A stretch of 64,000 nucleotides of DNA from Paracoccaceae bacterium. GTDB lineage: Bacteria > Pseudomonadota > Alphaproteobacteria > Rhodobacterales > Rhodobacteraceae. Under the pieces are notes generated by a model. That model did not search any database and had not been told where the DNA came from. It worked only from the letters and a program-made list of their open reading frames with translations. Location: positions 514 to 64,513 of the forward strand of contig JBMYRX010000004.1 of the NCBI GenBank assembly GCA_049602715.1, written 5' to 3'. A program made the position numbers and the translations under genes. Below, in pieces: positions 6,493 through 13,728 of the stretch (position 1 is its first letter; each line of letters starts with the position of its first letter).

Positions 6493-7578
6493 ATGGAAAG
6501 ACGTAAGTTTTTAACTGGAGCCGCATTGGCTGGAACCGGAGCGGCACTTGCAGCTCCAGCAGTAGCGCAAGGAGTGAAAACGATAACTATAGTTTCAACT
6601 TGGCCACGAGATTTTCCAGGTCTTGGTACATCGGCTCAGAGGCTATGCGCTAGAATTGACGCAATCTCTGGTGGAGCTTTGAAAACTGAATATTTTGCTG
6701 CAGGCGAAAAGGTTGGAGCTTTTGACAGCTTTGACGAAGTTGCGGCAGGAAATTCACATGCTTATATAGCCGCTGAATACTATTGGGGTGGTAAGCATGC
6801 TGGTTACAATTACTTCACATCCGTACCGTTCGGGATGACAACACCAGAATGGAATGCATGGATTAAATTTAAAGGCGGGCAAGAGCTTTGGGATGAGCTT
6901 GCTGCTAGTTTTAACCTTAAGGCTTTTACTTGTGGTGGAACAGGTGCTCAATGTGGTGGTTGGTTCAACAAAGAGATTAACTCTCCAGAAGACCTTCAGG
7001 GACTAAAAATGCGTATACCAGGACTTGGTGGAACTGTTCTTTCTAAACTTGGAGTTTCTACTGTTTCTTTGCCAGGAGGACAAATTTATGAGAATTTAGT
7101 CTCAGGTTCTGTTGATGCAACCGAGTGGGTTGGGCCTTATAATGATTACTTTATGAAATTTTATGAAGCCGCTAAGTATTACTATACTGGTGGGATGCAC
7201 GAGCCAGGTGGTGGCCTTGGGTTTGGAATGAATCTAGATTTCTATAATAATCTTACAGATCATGAGCGAGCTGTAATTGAAGCTGCTTGTATGGAAGAGA
7301 ATGCTGCCCAGCCAGAAGAGGCAATGGCAAACAACGGCACATACCTGAAGAAGCTTGTTGATGACCATGGAACACAACTCCGTTCATTCAATGACGACGT
7401 CTGGGATGCCTTTGGAGATGCTGCAGCTGAAGTTTTTGAAGAAACACGCCAACACTCTGAATTGGCTGCTAGGATTAACGACTCCTATCAGGCAGCACTG
7501 AGAGACATTGGTGGTTTCAGAGCGATTGCTGAAATTGAGTTCTCAAGTCAAAGAAACAGAGTTTTAGGCTTAACCTAA
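6493..7578 (+). CDS. TRAP transporter substrate-binding protein (DctP-type, COG4663-like) with a Tat-type signal
   Basis: 361 aa. It carries the twin-arginine leader MERRKFLTGAALAGTGAALAAPAVAQG. It is followed by TRAP small and large membrane subunits. The RBS gggagaagg lies upstream. Confidence 0.85.
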   Translation: MERRKFLTGAALAGTGAALAAPAVAQGVKTITIVSTWPRDFPGLGTSAQRLCARIDAISGGALKTEYFAAGEKVGAFDSFDEVAAGNSHAYIAAEYYWGGKHAGYNYFTSVPFGMTTPEWNAWIKFKGGQELWDELAASFNLKAFTCGGTGAQCGGWFNKEINSPEDLQGLKMRIPGLGGTVLSKLGVSTVSLPGGQIYENLVSGSVDATEWVGPYNDYFMKFYEAAKYYYTGGMHEPGGGLGFGMNLDFYNNLTDHERAVIEAACMEENAAQPEEAMANNGTYLKKLVDDHGTQLRSFNDDVWDAFGDAAAEVFEETRQHSELAARINDSYQAALRDIGGFRAIAEIEFSSQRNRVLGLT

Positions 7579-7678: not shown

Positions 7679-8674
7679 ATGAACTCTACCAATATAACAT
7701 CCGGACAAATCCTAGATGGCGAACCTGCTCTTTTAGCAAGAGCCTTTGGTTGGTTAACCTTAGCATTTTTAGTTGCCTTTATGATTAATAATGTTCTTTC
7801 GATAGGGTTTGATATTCCCTCTGGTAAAGATTTACTTACTAAACCCAGTTTAATTAATTTCATTCAGCCAATTGTTTATGTTGTTTGCTTCGCTTTAACC
7901 TTGTTTTGGGTTTATAGAACTCCAAGTCATACGCTAAGAAGCGACGCGAATAGAATTACAAACTTTAATACATATTTCATTCGTGGTTGTTTTTTTGCTG
8001 TACTTTTTGTTGGAGTTGTTGACGCTTCTATTGCCTGGTTACGAGTAGAAAGCCTTCTTCCTGTTGTTTTTAATGAGGCAACAGCTTCTGCACTTCTAAA
8101 ATCTCGTTTTATTGGCCCCGTAATTCACGTTCCGCTTGTTGTTTTAGGATTTGTGGTAGCGCTATTTTCGCGTACATTAGGTTTCTTTTGGTTGGCTCTT
8201 ATGATTGTTGGAGCTGAACTTTTAATTGTAATTTTCAGATTTGTGTTTTCTTATGAACAAACGATGATGGGTGACCTAGTAAGATATTGGTACGCCGCAT
8301 TATTCTTATTCGCTTCTGCATATACGCTCCTAGAAGAAGGGCACGTAAGAGTTGATATATTGTACTCTGGTTTCAATCAAAAGAAAAAAGGGAAAATTAA
8401 TGCTTACGGATCTATCTTGTTAGGTATGATGACTGCAATAACAATATTTCTCATATGCTTGTGGTCTAAACAGGCGATTGTGAATTCACCTGTAATGAAC
8501 TTTGAGGTTACACAAACCGGTACGGCAGGGATGTATACAAAGTACCAAATGGCTGTATTTTTATTAATTTTTGCTATCTCGATGCAAATACAATTTGTTA
8601 GTTATTTCTTGGAATCGGTTGCCGATACAAGAGGCGAACCTGGTAAACGAGTACCAAAACCAATTTCACACTGA
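7679..8674 (+). CDS. TRAP transporter small permease (DctQ-like) with an N-terminal membrane extension
   Basis: 331 aa and hydrophobic throughout. The DctQ-type EEGHVRVD motif sits near residue 220 rather than near the N-terminus. It lies between the TRAP SBP and the large permease. Confidence 0.75.
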   Translation: MNSTNITSGQILDGEPALLARAFGWLTLAFLVAFMINNVLSIGFDIPSGKDLLTKPSLINFIQPIVYVVCFALTLFWVYRTPSHTLRSDANRITNFNTYFIRGCFFAVLFVGVVDASIAWLRVESLLPVVFNEATASALLKSRFIGPVIHVPLVVLGFVVALFSRTLGFFWLALMIVGAELLIVIFRFVFSYEQTMMGDLVRYWYAALFLFASAYTLLEEGHVRVDILYSGFNQKKKGKINAYGSILLGMMTAITIFLICLWSKQAIVNSPVMNFEVTQTGTAGMYTKYQMAVFLLIFAISMQIQFVSYFLESVADTRGEPGKRVPKPISH

Positions 8675-8685
8675 GGCTGTACCAA

Positions 8686-11346
8686 ATGGAACTATTTTTC
8701 TTAGCGATACTTGTGATTATCATGGCAACAGCATTAGGGTCCGGTTACCCTGTTGCATTCGCACTACCGGGTGCAGCGATTATGACTATCATATTAGCGG
8801 GTGTTAGTGGTTATTTTTTTGCTGGTGATCCCGCTGCTTATTTTCATCAAGGCGGACCGTCACAGTGGCTTTCTTCCGGAATTACAAATCTAAGGGGTGT
8901 ATACTGGGAGGTGGAGCGTGACACTTTAATAGCAATACCACTCTTTATTTTTATGGGAATTATGCTCCAAAAATCCAAAATAGCTGAGGACCTTTTAGTA
9001 ACCATGGCCAACTTATTTGGGCCAGTTCCTGGTGGTCTCGGAATATCAGTTGTATTTGTTGGGGCTCTTTTAGCAGCCACAACTGGCATAGTTGGTGCTA
9101 CCGTAGTTGCAATGGGTTTAATTTCTTTACCTGCGATGCTTAGGAATAATTATTCGAAAGCTTTGGCAAGTGGTACCATAGCCGCGTCAGGAACACTTGG
9201 TCAAATTATTCCTCCATCAATCGTATTGATAATTTTAGCAGACCAATTAGGGTCTGCTGCTGATCAAGCTGGAACCGCTAGAAAATTATTACACAAAGAA
9301 GCTACGGGTGAACTCTCAATGCCAAGCATGTTTGACGTTGGCTCAACGAGTGCTGGAGAGATGTTTCTAGGAGCACTTGTTCCCGGATTAGTATTAGTAG
9401 GCGTTTACATGCTTTTTCTTTTAGTGTTTGCATTTATTGTACCTAAGGCAGCTCCCGCGGTGAGATATAAAGGCAAAATGGATCTTAATTTTTGGGGCTC
9501 AGTTTTCTTAACTCTTATCCCTCCATTGGGACTTATATTCCTGGTTTTAGGGTCAATAATTACCGGTGTTGCTACAGTTAATCAAGCAGGAGCGATTGGA
9601 GCATCTGGCGCGTTAATAATGGCTGGTTATAGATTAACTGAACATTCCAAAGTAAGGTATTACCCTGCCCTACTTGCTATTATTTCTATTTTGCTAATTG
9701 CTTATTGTCTAACGAACTACAATATGAACGTGAAGGCAATCATAGTAAATGGTGGTGATAGTACTGGCATATGGTTGGGTGTGCTTGCGTCAATTGGATT
9801 AATAGTCTCTATCGCGTGGAGCGGTACTCGGGTTTTAAAGCTTAATAATACACTTCACGAAGTAATGATAGAAACCGCGAAAACAACCTCATTGGTTTTT
9901 ATTATTCTTTTAGGCGCTGCAGTTTTAACCGCTGCATTCAGAGCTTTTGGAGGAGAAGATTTAGTTCGTGACTTTTTAAATTCTTTGCCTGGTGGCTTTT
10001 GGGCAAAGTTTGTTATCGTCATGGCAGTTATATTCGTTCTCGGGTTTTTCTTAGATTTTATTGAAATTGCAGTCGTTGTAGTCCCTATTGTGGCACCGAT
10101 ACTTCTAGCTGATCCGTCTGCGAACATTACAGCCGTATGGTTAGGAGTAATGATCGGACTTAATATCCAAACTTCTTTTTTAACTCCACCCTTTGGCTTT
10201 GCTCTTTTTTATCTCAGAGGCGTAGCACCCGCAGCTGTAAAAACGTTGGATATTTATAAGGGTGTTATAGCATTTATCTGCTTACAGTTATTGGCACTAG
10301 GAATAGTTGGCTATTATCCGCAATTAGTTAATTATTTACCAAATAGAATGAGCCTACTTTCCGAATCTTCCCCTCCACCTCGAAACCCTAAACTTCAAAT
10401 ATGTTTAGAAGAATACTCTATGCGAGAGGTTTCAATAAACCGGCAAGAAATAATGGACGCTATAATTAATAGTAAAAAATTGGATCTATCATTCCTTCCC
10501 AAGAAAGTTTCGTCAAACTTAAGTGGAGCATTTAAATCAGCTGAGGAGGCGGTTATCACCTTGGAGCAAATATTTGTAGCAGAAAAAGAAGTTACCAAAA
10601 ATGCACCTGCTTATCGACCTCTTTTGAGAATAGTAAGAGACATTCAGAGCTCGATAAGATCCGCAGAGAAAGAGTCAAAAAAATTAAAAAGTTCTTTATC
10701 TTATTTGAAATCTGAAAGTGACGCGGCGGAACGCGAAAACGTCGTTAAGAAAATGAAAGGTTTAGAAAAGGAAATAGCAGTCCTTAATTCCGAAATACCA
10801 AGTGATTGGAACAGTGTTTATTCATCATTCAGTAAACTTGTTAAAACCGAAAATACAGCTCGAAAGAAATATCGTAGGTCGGCAGATAAATCGTATGAGC
10901 AAGTGGCCGAATTTCTAGCTATTTTAGATGCGAATGAAGCATTTATGAGCCTTGAAGACGAGCTTTTCGCTCTAAAGGACACATTCGAACAAACCGAAGA
11001 TGGTTTTGCAGAGTTAGAAACAAAAAATCTTGGCAAGAAATTTACTAAAATAAAAGGAGCATCGGCCGTTAAATCTCAGTTAAGTAAGGCTGCACGACAA
11101 TTACGGCCTGGCAAGGTAAAGTTAGAAAAAGCTTTAAAAGAATATGATAAGGCCATAGTTATTTTTAACACAGACAAGTTGTGGCGTCTCGAAGCCGAGA
11201 CTAAACTTAGATACGCTCTAACTGGATATTTAAAAGTAATAGCGAATAATATCGGTGCGCGTCAGCAAGCTAAAATTTCACGTGATCAAGGTTTATTTTT
11301 AGCAAAATGTAATGCTGGACACAGAGACCTTTCACTAAACTTTTAA
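8686..11346 (+). CDS. TRAP transporter large permease (DctM-like, COG4664-like) fused to a ~330-aa hydrophilic C-terminal domain
   Basis: This is a single uninterrupted 886-aa ORF. Residues ~1-545 are polytopic membrane sequence with DctM-like motifs (FIFMGIML, LGQIIPPSI, TPPFGFALFYL). Residues ~550-886 are K/E/S-rich and heptad-like, with no hydrophobic segments. Confidence 0.8.
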   Translation: MELFFLAILVIIMATALGSGYPVAFALPGAAIMTIILAGVSGYFFAGDPAAYFHQGGPSQWLSSGITNLRGVYWEVERDTLIAIPLFIFMGIMLQKSKIAEDLLVTMANLFGPVPGGLGISVVFVGALLAATTGIVGATVVAMGLISLPAMLRNNYSKALASGTIAASGTLGQIIPPSIVLIILADQLGSAADQAGTARKLLHKEATGELSMPSMFDVGSTSAGEMFLGALVPGLVLVGVYMLFLLVFAFIVPKAAPAVRYKGKMDLNFWGSVFLTLIPPLGLIFLVLGSIITGVATVNQAGAIGASGALIMAGYRLTEHSKVRYYPALLAIISILLIAYCLTNYNMNVKAIIVNGGDSTGIWLGVLASIGLIVSIAWSGTRVLKLNNTLHEVMIETAKTTSLVFIILLGAAVLTAAFRAFGGEDLVRDFLNSLPGGFWAKFVIVMAVIFVLGFFLDFIEIAVVVVPIVAPILLADPSANITAVWLGVMIGLNIQTSFLTPPFGFALFYLRGVAPAAVKTLDIYKGVIAFICLQLLALGIVGYYPQLVNYLPNRMSLLSESSPPPRNPKLQICLEEYSMREVSINRQEIMDAIINSKKLDLSFLPKKVSSNLSGAFKSAEEAVITLEQIFVAEKEVTKNAPAYRPLLRIVRDIQSSIRSAEKESKKLKSSLSYLKSESDAAERENVVKKMKGLEKEIAVLNSEIPSDWNSVYSSFSKLVKTENTARKKYRRSADKSYEQVAEFLAILDANEAFMSLEDELFALKDTFEQTEDGFAELETKNLGKKFTKIKGASAVKSQLSKAARQLRPGKVKLEKALKEYDKAIVIFNTDKLWRLEAETKLRYALTGYLKVIANNIGARQQAKISRDQGLFLAKCNAGHRDLSLNF

Positions 11347-11362: not shown

Positions 11363-12136
11363 ATGGATCTTTCGGGTAAGACTGCTCTAATTACGGGTTC
11401 GACCACAGGTATTGGGTATGCAATTGCTGAGGGGCTTGCAAGTAAGGGTGTGAATATATTTTTGCACTCCATAACAAATGATAAGACCGACCATCAGCTT
11501 GCTGTAAAACTGGCAAAAAAGTTTTCAATTAAAACAACTTATTTACAAGCAAATTTGAGCTCCTCTTCTGCGGCAAGAAATCTTGTAAAGCGAACTGAAC
11601 ATATTGATATTCTTATCAATAATGCTGGCTTGCAGCATGTAAGCCCAATTGAAAAACTAGAAATCTCTACCTGGGACACAATGATAGCGGTAATGTTGTC
11701 GGCAGTGTTTCATACCACAGCTATAGCACTCCCAATGATGAAAAGATCTGGATGGGGACGAATAATAAATATTTCGTCGGCTCATGGGTTGGTGGCATCC
11801 TCACAAAAATCTGCGTATGTTTCCGCCAAACATGGCGTAATAGGACTTACAAAAACTACTGCTTTGGAGACCGCTGAACTTCCTATAACAGCAAATTCCA
11901 TATGCCCAGGTTTCACTCAAACACCATTACTGGAGAAACAAATTCCCGCACTAATGAAACAGTATGGGATGAGTAAAGAGCAGTTGGTATCGGATATATT
12001 GATGGAAAGGCAACCCTCAAAAGAATTTGTTGAAGCGAATCAAATAGCAGGTTTGGTAAAGTTTTTATGCACAAGCGATGCGGATCAAATAACAGGTTCC
12101 GCAATTAGTATCGATGGTGGTTGGACAGCAATGTAG
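11363..12136 (+). CDS. bdhA: D-3-hydroxybutyrate dehydrogenase (SDR)
   Basis: 257 aa. It has the TGSTTGIG cofactor motif. The stretch GWGRIINISSAHGLVAS..KSAYV.AKHG..GLTK and the C-terminal ITG...DGGWTA closely match rhizobial BdhA. Confidence 0.8.
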   Translation: MDLSGKTALITGSTTGIGYAIAEGLASKGVNIFLHSITNDKTDHQLAVKLAKKFSIKTTYLQANLSSSSAARNLVKRTEHIDILINNAGLQHVSPIEKLEISTWDTMIAVMLSAVFHTTAIALPMMKRSGWGRIINISSAHGLVASSQKSAYVSAKHGVIGLTKTTALETAELPITANSICPGFTQTPLLEKQIPALMKQYGMSKEQLVSDILMERQPSKEFVEANQIAGLVKFLCTSDADQITGSAISIDGGWTAM

Positions 12137-12213
12137 ATATTAATTAGTATTTATACTCTGTTATTATTCTGTAATATTAAGCCAATTGAAATATTTGTGG
12201 GTAATTTATTCTA

Positions 12214-13728
12214 ATGGTATCACTTTTTGATAATGGTAAACAGCTTCCCTGCCCCGAAAATTTTAATCTTGCGAAATATGTGTTATCGTATTCTGATCAC
12301 AACAGCTCAAAATGTGCTCTTGAGTTAATTGCTTCTCCTCAAAATTTGAAATGGAGTTACGAAGACCTGCTGAAGGAAGTATGCAGTAAAGCCGTATTAC
12401 TGAGAGAATATGGAATTATTGAAAATGACAGGGTCCTTTTACGTTTAGGAAATACGATTAACTTTCCAGTAATGTTTCTTGCTTGTATATGGTCAGGAGT
12501 AATACCTGTGCCGACGTCTTCACAGTTAACCAAAACTGAAATTAATAAGATTGAAAGCCTAGTAAATCCTCAGTTAATAATCGCGGGGGAAAATATAGTT
12601 TTACCAGAATCAAACGCTCCAGTACTAACTGAAAAAGTGCTTACGAAATACAAAACGGATAGATTATTAGCCGCTAAAATTGGATCTCCTGATCGGATTG
12701 CTTACATCGTCTTTACTTCGGGTACATCAGCAGAACCTAAGGGAGTTGTCCATGCTCACAGAGCTATATGGGCTCGCAGGATGATGTTTGATGATTGGTA
12801 TGGTATAACTGAAAGCGATAAGATCCTGCATTCAGGCGCCTTCAACTGGACGTACACCTTAGGTACTGGGTTGCTAGATCCTTGGACAGTAGGAGCTACG
12901 GCGATAATGTCTGAAAAACCTTTTAATCCAAATGATTTTTATAAAATCATTAACAAAAATGAAATAACTATTTTTTCATCTTCACCGTCTATCTTTCGTA
13001 AAATACTAAAAAATAAGAACGTTTTAAAATTAAACTCTCTCAGACATAACTTATCCGCTGGAGAAAAGCTTTCAGATAGTATCCGAGAAAAATGGGAACA
13101 AAAGACTAAAACTAGGATCTATGAAGCTTTCGGAATGTCGGAGTGTTCTACTTTTATATCTCAAAGACCGAACGAAAACTTAACTGATTTACAAAGTATG
13201 GGGAAACCACAGAGAGGTAGGTCGGTTGCGATACTAGACGAAGAAAATAATCCTGTAGGGTTCGATAAAGTAGGTAATTTAGCCGTGGCCTCTACAGATC
13301 CTGGATGTATGCTTTACTATTTAGGTGAAAAAAAACTTAAGCAAAAATGGTTGCTCACAAATGATCTAGCCAAAATGTCAGAATATGGAGAAGTAACATA
13401 TATCGGTCGAAATGATGATATGCTTAATTCTGGTGGAAACCGTGTTTCTCCAATAGAATTAGAGAATTTATTTAGTAGTTTAGAAGGTATAGATAATGTT
13501 GCAGCCGTCGATCTTACCATAAAAGAAGATACCACTATAATAGCAGTTTTTTATGTTGCAGAAGAGTCATTTGAGAAAAAATTAAAAATTCTTTCGGAGC
13601 AGAATCTCGCTCGTTACAAACAACCTCGATTGTTTATCCAGGTCGATTCATTTCCAACTTCAGGGAACGGGAAGATTAATAGAAATCAACTTCGCTCTCA
13701 GTATGAGGCAAATAGAAAAAATGTTTAG
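12214..13728 (+). CDS. AMP-dependent synthetase/ligase (acyl- or aryl-CoA ligase)
   Basis: 504 aa with the AMP-binding motif IVFTSGTSAEPKGV and a C-terminal GKI.R motif. The substrate cannot be determined from the sequence. Confidence 0.85.
   Translation: MVSLFDNGKQLPCPENFNLAKYVLSYSDHNSSKCALELIASPQNLKWSYEDLLKEVCSKAVLLREYGIIENDRVLLRLGNTINFPVMFLACIWSGVIPVPTSSQLTKTEINKIESLVNPQLIIAGENIVLPESNAPVLTEKVLTKYKTDRLLAAKIGSPDRIAYIVFTSGTSAEPKGVVHAHRAIWARRMMFDDWYGITESDKILHSGAFNWTYTLGTGLLDPWTVGATAIMSEKPFNPNDFYKIINKNEITIFSSSPSIFRKILKNKNVLKLNSLRHNLSAGEKLSDSIREKWEQKTKTRIYEAFGMSECSTFISQRPNENLTDLQSMGKPQRGRSVAILDEENNPVGFDKVGNLAVASTDPGCMLYYLGEKKLKQKWLLTNDLAKMSEYGEVTYIGRNDDMLNSGGNRVSPIELENLFSSLEGIDNVAAVDLTIKEDTTIIAVFYVAEESFEKKLKILSEQNLARYKQPRLFIQVDSFPTSGNGKINRNQLRSQYEANRKNV

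Follow-up and report, generated by a model that had tools for sequence, protein, structure and literature searches.

A DctM-type TRAP transporter subunit of Rhodobacteraceae with a conserved helical C-terminal domain that is probably periplasmic

Why does a membrane subunit of a TRAP transporter continue for about 335 residues beyond its last membrane helix, and what might the additional part do? TRAP transporters are thought to be a minimal Q-M unit with a bare periplasmic face, on which the binding protein acts as the 'operator' of the elevator. In the window (the whole 64,000-nucleotide stretch of DNA analysed, from a Paracoccaceae bacterium), a dctM-type ORF of 886 codons was called at 8686..11346 (+). 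An earlier note on this DNA had described it as a TRAP large permease fused to a large hydrophilic tail that could not be recognised. Both the length of the ORF and the genuine nature of the fusion stood up to analysis, and the databases searched did not recognise the helical domain either. The locus has the following features.

6493..7578 (+): dctP, encoding a TakP-like solute-binding protein of 361 aa with a TAT signal (Pfam DctP, 2.2e-44; PDB matches)
7679..8173 (+): N-terminal extension of dctQ, aa 1-165, with about four added TM helices (hydropathy)
8174..8674 (+): canonical four-helix part of dctQ, aa 166-331 (Pfam DctQ at 183-307, 1.5e-07)
8686..10347 (+): membrane core of dctM, aa 1-554 (Pfam DctM, 4.4e-60; twin-proline motifs)
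10243..10329 (+): last TM helix, aa 520-548, equivalent to TM12 of SiaM in the elevator domain (alignment to 7qe5/8y4w)
10330..10404 (+): near-invariant linker NYLPNRxSLLSExxPPPRNPKLQxC, ending at the invariant Cys573 (conservation)
10501..10929 (+): long antiparallel helical hairpin, aa 606-748 (AF2 model m031b96633d58)
10906..11205 (+): region resembling a four-helix bundle, aa 741-840 (generic bundles matched by VIA-align, model residues 197-296)
11308..11343 (+): C-terminal motif C875-x3-H-R-D-x-S-L-N-F886 (AF2 model, conservation)

A DctM-tail fusion with an intact reading frame

By its profile matches the protein is a member of the DctM family, although one of non-canonical architecture. 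Pfam DctM (PF06808; 4.4e-60 on the 886-aa ORF) and TIGR00786 match the N-terminal ~550 residues only, and the last ~335 aa lie outside both profiles. The core scored 204 bits against PF06808 (cut-off 23.8) and 252.7 bits against TIGR00786, slightly below the curated 268.45, which is expected of a divergent DctM subfamily. The final hydrophobic helix (aa 520-548) is followed by ...YPQLVNYLPNR (545-554) and the hinge SESSPPPRNPK, the same succession of membrane part, hinge and hydrophilic tail that had been read at the outset. As the peak 19-residue Kyte-Doolittle mean in aa 549-886 is only 0.75, the tail has no TM segment; it contains 40 K, 38 L, 35 S, 32 E and 32 A, in keeping with its first description as rich in K, E, S and L and free of hydrophobic helices. 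A tail-less paralogue of 522 aa, at the relatives' locus L049, stops four residues past the equivalent of N553, which places the extra part at ~554-886.

The earlier note had considered that an indel or stop near the junction might have joined a normal dctM to a separate ORF. An independent study supplies a DNA contig that bridges the junction (9900-10550, 0 differences), an RNA-library contig crosses it at 10221-10954, and no indel was present at 10.3-10.45 kb in any of the four runs checked. About 110 homologues of 874-907 aa can be aligned over their full length. A frameshift or artefact is ruled out by the independent contigs and the more than 100 homologues of equal length; the fusion of DctM and tail is real, in an intact frame and conserved.

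The window's protein and canonical DctM/SiaM (PF06808; 7qe5, 7qha/8b01, 8y4w) are alike in the core (aa 1-554) and in the gene order dctP-dctQ-dctM. Both have the twin-proline motifs, here P176-P177 (GQIIPPS) and P501-P502 (LTPPFGF), which are invariant in 112 sequences and whose equivalence to the TM5 and TM11 breaks was set by alignment to SiaQM. In SiaM the motifs lie at these breaks and form Na+ sites (PMC9971032). Since the Na+-site motifs are invariant, the core is predicted to transport, probably, in the normal way; its identity among relatives is 72-80%. The final 110 core residues align to the C-terminal end of SiaM (core 440-553 with HiSiaQM 504-612 of 616, A1 profile). Whereas a canonical DctM ends just after TM12, the core here stops in SiaM-like fashion at ~553 and 333 more residues follow (~335 additional residues after TM12). 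The core also differs from SiaM in having about two additional helices, which are found in tail-less 522-aa relatives as well, and the partner DctQ has eight TM helices in place of the canonical four. In the best explanation, which as a whole stays a little short of probable, the protein is the M subunit, the large one, of an elevator-type TRAP transporter coupled to sodium.

Occurrence of the tail and its partner genes

Relatives keep the fusion. The ~886-aa architecture was found in at least 462 protein clusters, nearly all of 884-888 aa, and tailed DctM occurs in 42 of 301 genera of Rhodobacteraceae, with an open frame of 881-919 aa wherever it is complete. Carriers in culture include Sedimentitalea nanhaiensis and an Aliiroseovarius species. 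The subfamily is common in marine Rhodobacteraceae and present in metatranscriptome libraries, and the tailed system is kept in the host genome assembly of ~1.9 Mb (87% complete). It had been foreseen that the tail might turn out to be a common, already annotated feature of its subfamily. It is indeed common in one subfamily, but no domain annotation was found where searched: the domain goes unnoticed behind the label 'TRAP transporter large permease subunit'.

Searches for relatives of the tail gave no significant match outside its own family among the matches listed. Pfam and NCBIfam gave nothing recurrent on the window's tail and all 36 tails, matches to coiled-coil families being sub-threshold and non-recurrent. 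No significant match was obtained with a PDB sequence profile search (best E 0.008, helical noise), with Foldseek of the tail model against PDB (best E 0.069) or in the ESM Atlas (best score 0.85, unnamed clusters). A wide VIA-align search with the model was likewise without significant match, its best Z of 10.3 over ~90-110 residues falling under the ~13 that chance alone gives with helical models; the comparison with four-helix-bundle domains (HPt, PsbQ, cytochrome b562-like) rests on this Z and on the Foldseek E of 0.069. In a profile search of 1.84 billion representatives the best 150 of 741 matches were of the same DctM family. A separate gene for the tail was not found among the matches listed in the protein-cluster and profile searches; every shorter match begins either inside the last TM helix or at the end of a contig, and retains ...LVNYLPNR. 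One candidate for a separate carrier (P0273, in which part of the tail follows a Lon-like N-terminus) appears to be an assembly chimera. The literature searched, mostly outside subscription journals, held no description of a C-terminal domain on DctM. To the reach of these searches, the tail has no detectable relatives, never occurs on its own and was met nowhere but at the C-terminal end of DctM proteins from this subfamily.

The presence of the tail is strictly coupled, in the genomes compared, to the four-TM N-terminal extension of DctQ and to a gene for a TakP-like binding protein. Among 301 family genomes, 40 had both extension and tail, none the extension only, two the tail only (both contig-end fragments) and 259 neither. 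A DctQ and a DctP-type binding protein are encoded with DctM in the window, and dctP, long dctQ and tailed dctM were found together in 19 of 20 relatives' loci, with dctP directly upstream; the 20th (L051) is without an adjacent dctP. The tail-less paralogue system adjacent at L049 has a DctQ of 174 aa, showing that related systems occur with neither tail nor DctQ extension. No signal was detected for an origin of the extension by internal duplication of DctQ (hhalign probability 0.2%). Mirror-tree and partial Mantel analysis singled out no co-evolving partner, the partial correlations being small and similar. No conserved neighbours beyond dctPQM, from which a substrate might be inferred, were found in the relatives' loci. 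Among the relatives, only the near-identical L001 has the bdhA-like SDR and the AMP-ligase as neighbours.

The closest PDB relatives of DctP are TakP of Rhodobacter sphaeroides (2hzk, 1.5e-61, residues 1-349) and the 'ketoacid-binding protein' 7ug8. The carboxylate-binding Arg177 of TakP is kept as GLKMR, so that both a close relationship to TakP and the conserved arginine are found in DctP. The alignment extends to residue 351 of the 365 in TakP and so takes in most of the swapped-helix region at the C-terminus. The comparison with TakPQM, the alpha-keto-acid TRAP system of R. sphaeroides, runs through TakP (2hzk/2hzl). TakP is an obligate helix-swapped dimer, which its authors proposed to stay bound to its membrane partner (PMC1839085). 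DctP is TakP-like, from a family of dimeric keto-acid binders. It is probably a dimer itself, and its substrate is probably a keto- or hydroxy-monocarboxylate.

Fold, conservation and predicted placement of the tail

The tail folds confidently in silico. An AF2 model of the isolated tail is all-helical (pLDDT 90.6, pTM 0.83), with a long hairpin and a helical bundle; in a full-length model the membrane part was poor (pLDDT 66). The hairpin helices span model residues 62-127, 133-159 and 164-204 (+544 for protein numbering) and include a helix of 66 residues, a variable tip at ~672-676 and a conserved elbow of YRP (643-645) and IPxxW (704-708). The 'coiled-coil-like' character first given to the tail fits in part: the confidently modelled monomer is an intramolecular antiparallel hairpin plus bundle, with Cys, Trp and Arg positions that do not vary, and differs from a plain rod of heptads.

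Conservation peaks in the first 25 and last 15 residues of the tail (top-residue frequency 0.84-0.88 in the linker block and 0.94 in the C-terminal motif) and is lowest at the hairpin tip, which has indels; this suggests that the tail acts at its base, not its tip. Tail identity is only 30-44%, with C573, C875, W708, W833, R651, R859 and F886 invariant. The last eight residues are disordered in the isolated model. The tail evolves at ~4 times the rate of the core, a pattern compatible with a structural appendage under loose constraint and less so with an exact docking surface. Its net charge ranges from -28 to +41 among homologues, which speaks against electrostatic docking conserved across the entire domain.

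SiaM is N-out/C-out, with TM10-12 forming the transport domain and TM12 a mobile part of the elevator (PMC9971032), and the N-terminus of DctM is periplasmic (PMC5812351). As the tail starts exactly where the C-out SiaM ends, it is probably periplasmic, and its lack of a hydrophobic segment and its invariant Cys pair point to the same side. There is thus good support for a tail that would hang in the periplasm from TM12 by the invariant proline-rich linker. Exactly two cysteines, both invariant, are present in every one of 148 tails (112/112 and 36/36), suggesting a disulfide. The predicted Cys573-Cys875 bond, which is also well supported, would staple the two ends of the tail near the membrane, with the long variable hairpin projecting away from it. 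Isolated beta-bridges at 562 and 863 in the model likewise suggest that the ends lie near each other. A heme-c motif was ruled out, the tail having C-x3-H and not CxxCH.

What the tail may do

The earlier note had suggested a regulatory, scaffolding or sensing module, leaving aside the side of the membrane. In the favoured reading, an all-helical domain of ~38 kDa (aa ~555-886) was acquired at the outer end of the last DctM helix. Together, the tail base, the near-invariant HRDxSLNF peptide and the enlarged DctQ scaffold would make an extra periplasmic superstructure at the docking face. The tail would most likely serve as a dock or anchor for the TakP-like binding protein, itself probably a dimer, and/or link this docking to the movement of the elevator, while substrate recognition would stay with DctP. 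A periplasmic accessory module at the interface of binding protein and transporter is thus proposed tentatively, with slightly less than even confidence, and within it the superstructure and the docking or coupling role are less firmly grounded than the placement. The tail may even link the binding protein physically to the elevator domain, holding a TakP-like dimer permanently on the QM scaffold, although this bolder form is rather unlikely. It recalls the 'membrane-bound pathway' proposed for TakP by Gonin et al. (PMC1839085), and if true the subfamily would be a quasi-fused receptor-transporter machine instead of one that relies on free diffusion and docking.

Somewhat less likely again is a periplasmic gate or brake, in which the tail, carried by the mobile TM12 and resting on the static enlarged DctQ, restrains or times the elevator, either as an auto-inhibition relieved by DctP or as a block on back-leak of substrate. 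The attachment to the transport domain, the strict co-gain with the additional DctQ scaffold helices and the invariant, rigid-looking PPP linker with its conserved base all fit such a role; it overlaps the accessory-module reading, and sequence alone does not tell the two apart.

An unlikely alternative is that the hairpin dimerises two QM units or serves as a steric spacer or a strut reaching the peptidoglycan. The 66-residue helix and hairpin, the fast-evolving, indel-tolerant tip and the matches to coiled-coil families (albeit sub-threshold) are consistent with this; a dimeric binding protein would match two QM units, and HiSiaQM is capable of self-association (PMC10942642). However, the AF2 monomer is well packed alone (pTM 0.83), and the invariant residues lie at base and elbow without forming a heptad seam.

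A cytoplasmic regulatory or metal-binding domain, with a topology unlike that of SiaM and with C573, C875 and H879 binding metal or sensing redox, is improbable. Two invariant Cys and the near-invariant His879 could make a metal site, and the topology is inferred by homology for a core about two helices longer than SiaM. Against this, the last 110 core residues match the C-terminus of SiaM, and the fold needs the canonical orientation of TM10-12 (PMC9971032). The inserted helices fall between aligned blocks and, being about two in number, preserve the orientation. That none of the 148 divergent tails has a further Cys is what one commonly sees in exported domains, and a periplasmic tail would exclude typical cytoplasmic regulatory roles.

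Equally improbable is a second, low-affinity ligand or sensor site, at which the four-helix-bundle part would bind a small anion through arginines, in the manner of 4HB chemoreceptor sensor domains, and act allosterically on transport: R644, R651, R726, R730, R731, R834 and R859 are invariant or near-invariant, and generic four-helix bundles of periplasmic or lumenal proteins came up as matches to the region, but the VIA-align score is under chance level for helical bundles, no sequence relationship to any sensor family was found, and the arginines may just form structural salt bridges with E722 and D734, which are conserved as strongly.

The accessory module favoured here has parallels in other importers. 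The P2 loop of MalF, a membrane subunit of the maltose ABC importer, forms a domain in the periplasm and touches the binding protein. It has the concept alone in common with the tail, a sizeable periplasmic domain on an importer membrane subunit at the docking face. There is no kinship of sequence or fold, the one system being an ABC importer and the other a secondary elevator. P2 is a loop, whereas the tail is appended at the C-terminus, and for the tail a contact with the binding protein is hypothetical. In HiSiaQM the fusion helix is exposed to the periplasm and has been proposed to contact the binding protein (PMC10942642). Both are accessory elements on a TRAP membrane component, but the one in HiSiaQM consists of just one helix and a short arm and belongs to the Q-M linker, on the side of the scaffold, whereas the window's is a folded domain of 335 residues at the C-terminus of the transport domain.

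If the tail is merely a structural appendage, the gain is a modest one in annotation. If the predicted placement is right, the subfamily would put a folded 38-kDa domain on the moving part at the docking face, together with four additional DctQ scaffold helices. How docking of the binding protein is coupled to transport is poorly understood, and a tail in touch with the binding protein, or in control of the elevator, would define a new domain family and offer a natural handle on that coupling.

The long dctM of the TRAP operon

A three-gene TRAP operon is present in the window:

6493-7578, + strand, dctP, first gene of the operon
7679-8674, + strand, dctQ, unusually long (331 aa), second gene of the operon
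8686-11346, + strand, dctM (886 codons), third gene of the operon

DctM had been described in the earlier note as a TRAP permease fused to an unrecognised hydrophilic C-terminal domain of ~330 aa. Both description and coordinates are borne out by the ORF, by matches to Pfam DctM and TIGR00786 that end near residue 550, by hydropathy and by composition. The last hydrophobic helix (520-548) is followed by YPQLVNYLPNR and the hinge SESSPPPRNPK; residues 549-886 contain no hydrophobic segment (19-residue hydropathy maximum of 0.75) and are high in K, L, S, E and A. The membrane core (residues 1-554) is intact, with both twin-proline Na+-site motifs present, and is a bona fide DctM, while the architecture is non-canonical.

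The long reading frame is real. No indels were seen in four public runs, and the junction, for which a check against raw reads had been proposed, is bridged by one DNA contig from a study not flagged as the source (9900-10550, zero differences) and by one contig from a metatranscriptomic library (10221-10954). The latter hints at transcription but does not prove it, because RNA libraries can contain DNA. A search with the C-terminal domain only (hereafter the tail) matched at least 462 protein clusters, nearly all of 884 to 888 aa, and 111 clusters from this search align to window DctM over its full length. Several contigs of other organisms, from metagenomes and metatranscriptomes, match only 10160-10212 (53 nt, five differences) and diverge beyond it. 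As this segment codes for the invariant TPPFGFALFYLRG motif of the core, they are relatives that share a strongly conserved stretch and do not represent variants of window dctM.

In one relative, a tail-less pair lies directly 3' of the tailed dctM (L049:10449-12587; DctQ 174 aa, DctM 522 aa). This DctM is 42% identical to the window core over residues 8-553 and stops four residues past the equivalent of N553; therefore, the added part is residues ~554-886, and the enlarged core of ~520-550 aa is older than the tail.

Fold, conservation and relatives of the tail

The tail is a conserved, folded, family-specific C-terminal domain. AlphaFold2 gave a confident, all-helical model (pLDDT 90.6, pTM 0.83; 112-sequence alignment), comprising two short helices, a 66-residue helix folding back as a hairpin (residues ~606-748), a bundle-like region (~741-852) and a C-terminal helix that runs back to the N-terminal linker, with disorder limited to the last eight residues. 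Isolated β-bridge residues in the model, one per tail end (562 and 863), suggest that the linker lies near the C-terminal region.

Tails are 30-44% identical to each other, yet their length is near constant. C573, C875, R651, W708, W833, R859 and F886 do not vary in either of two alignments, and little or no variation is seen in the motifs PPPRNP, YRP, IPxxW and C-x3-HRDxSLNF. Conservation is strongest over the first 25 and last 15 residues and weakest at the hairpin tip, where there are indels. All tails in the two sets (112 and 36) have exactly two cysteines, the invariant pair. The window tail (10330-11343) is Lys-rich with a net charge of +13 (median of 112 homologous tails -10, range -28 to +41), which looks like compositional drift in this genome, with its low GC (~38%) and small size (1.9 Mb, 87% complete).

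The tail matches no recognised domain in Pfam, NCBIfam, PDB sequences or the ESM Atlas. Nor did its model do so in Foldseek (best E 0.069) or in VIA-align (Z 10.3 to generic four-helix bundles, below helical background). Among the best 150 matches of a tail profile to 1.84 billion representatives there were only pieces of the same fused protein; all listed pieces reaching that far still carry ...LVNYLPNR, where the last TM helix ends, as in a search for shorter proteins. No standalone, signal-peptide-bearing or otherwise fused tail was found in either search, which answers the question of whether relatives keep the fusion: they do, with no separate version among the listed matches. A 357-aa metagenomic protein, P0273, joins a Lon-protease-like N-terminus to tail residues 59-338; it is probably a chimera of assembly or gene calling rather than a second architecture. 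Full-text literature searches gave no description of the domain, and database names for tailed DctM are only 'TRAP transporter large permease subunit' or 'DctM subunit, unknown substrate 6'. We class the tail as an undescribed domain family.

Coupling to the DctQ extension

The tail is strictly coupled to an N-terminal extension of DctQ (residues 1-165, 4 TM helices). Both occur in 40 of 301 Rhodobacteraceae genomes, the extension alone in none and neither in 259; the remaining two have the tail only, both as a contig-end fragment. Sampling across the phylum recovered the tail in 7 of 401, in the same class only; source annotations of tailed proteins also name Microbulbifer and Arenicellales. 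DctQ has ~8 TM helices, with the canonical domain as its C-terminal half, and duplication of the DctQ fold in the extension was not detectable (hhalign probability 0.2%). Tail and extension evolve at about four times the rate of the core (mean distances 1.11 and 1.13 versus 0.27), and a partial Mantel test singled out no co-evolving partner.

Twenty fetched relatives share the gene order dctP, long dctQ, tailed dctM, with one copy lacking an adjacent dctP, and no other neighbours recur. One genome (G685) carries two tailed copies, whose tails share 36% and 30% identity with the window tail; its second copy has a long dctQ and no adjacent dctP, and adjoins an ordinary 173/453-aa dctQM pair. A bdhA-like SDR and a 504-aa AMP-ligase lie 3' of the operon (11363-13728). 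They are neighbours only in a near-identical MAG ('Paracoccaceae bacterium', L001) and are absent beside the TRAP operon in 20 other relatives; thus, the link to hydroxybutyrate-type catabolism is local, not a family trait, and says little about the family's substrate.

Membrane side and possible role

In a DctM family profile, residues 440-553 align to 504-612 in HiSiaQM (616 residues in total), as well as to the corresponding end of 8y4w. The cryo-EM paper on PpSiaQM gives its M subunit 12 TM segments, N-out/C-out, with TM10-12 making up the mobile transport domain (PMC9971032), and the DctM N-terminus has been reviewed as periplasmic (PMC5812351). The extra ~66 core residues fall between aligned blocks and account for two hydrophobic helices, an addition that leaves the orientation unchanged; the tail would therefore start in the periplasm. 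With no further membrane crossings within it, the tail is probably periplasmic, and would be attached to the mobile TM12. Independently of topology, two cysteines only, together with tail ends that seem to lie close, make up the pattern expected of a disulfide-stapled exported domain; the staple would sit at the conserved membrane-proximal base. The conserved C-terminal peptide may be free and probably binds elsewhere. The fusion stands as first described, and the main change is the side of the membrane, now probably periplasmic by SiaM homology and the cysteine pair.

Window DctP is closest to TakP (1.5e-61) and a 'ketoacid-binding protein', and retains TakP Arg177. TakP is a tight helix-swapped dimer, which its authors suggest possibly stays bound to its membrane partner (PMC1839085).

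Carried on TM12, the tail could act purely as a gate or brake on the elevator, which we consider unlikely. The chances are lower still that this long helical domain is an oligomerisation device or spacer rod. A second ligand or sensor site on the invariant arginines is improbable, as is a cytoplasmic regulatory or metal site, which would place the tail across the membrane from the side indicated by SiaM homology. One of the nearest concepts, by analogy, is the P2 loop of MalF in the maltose ABC importer. Another is an additional helix in HiSiaQM, for which contact with SiaP has been proposed (PMC10942642). Our tentative preference is that the tail may be an accessory periplasmic module at the interface of binding protein and QM unit. 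There it would serve to dock the TakP-like protein or keep it in place, to link docking with elevator movement, or both.
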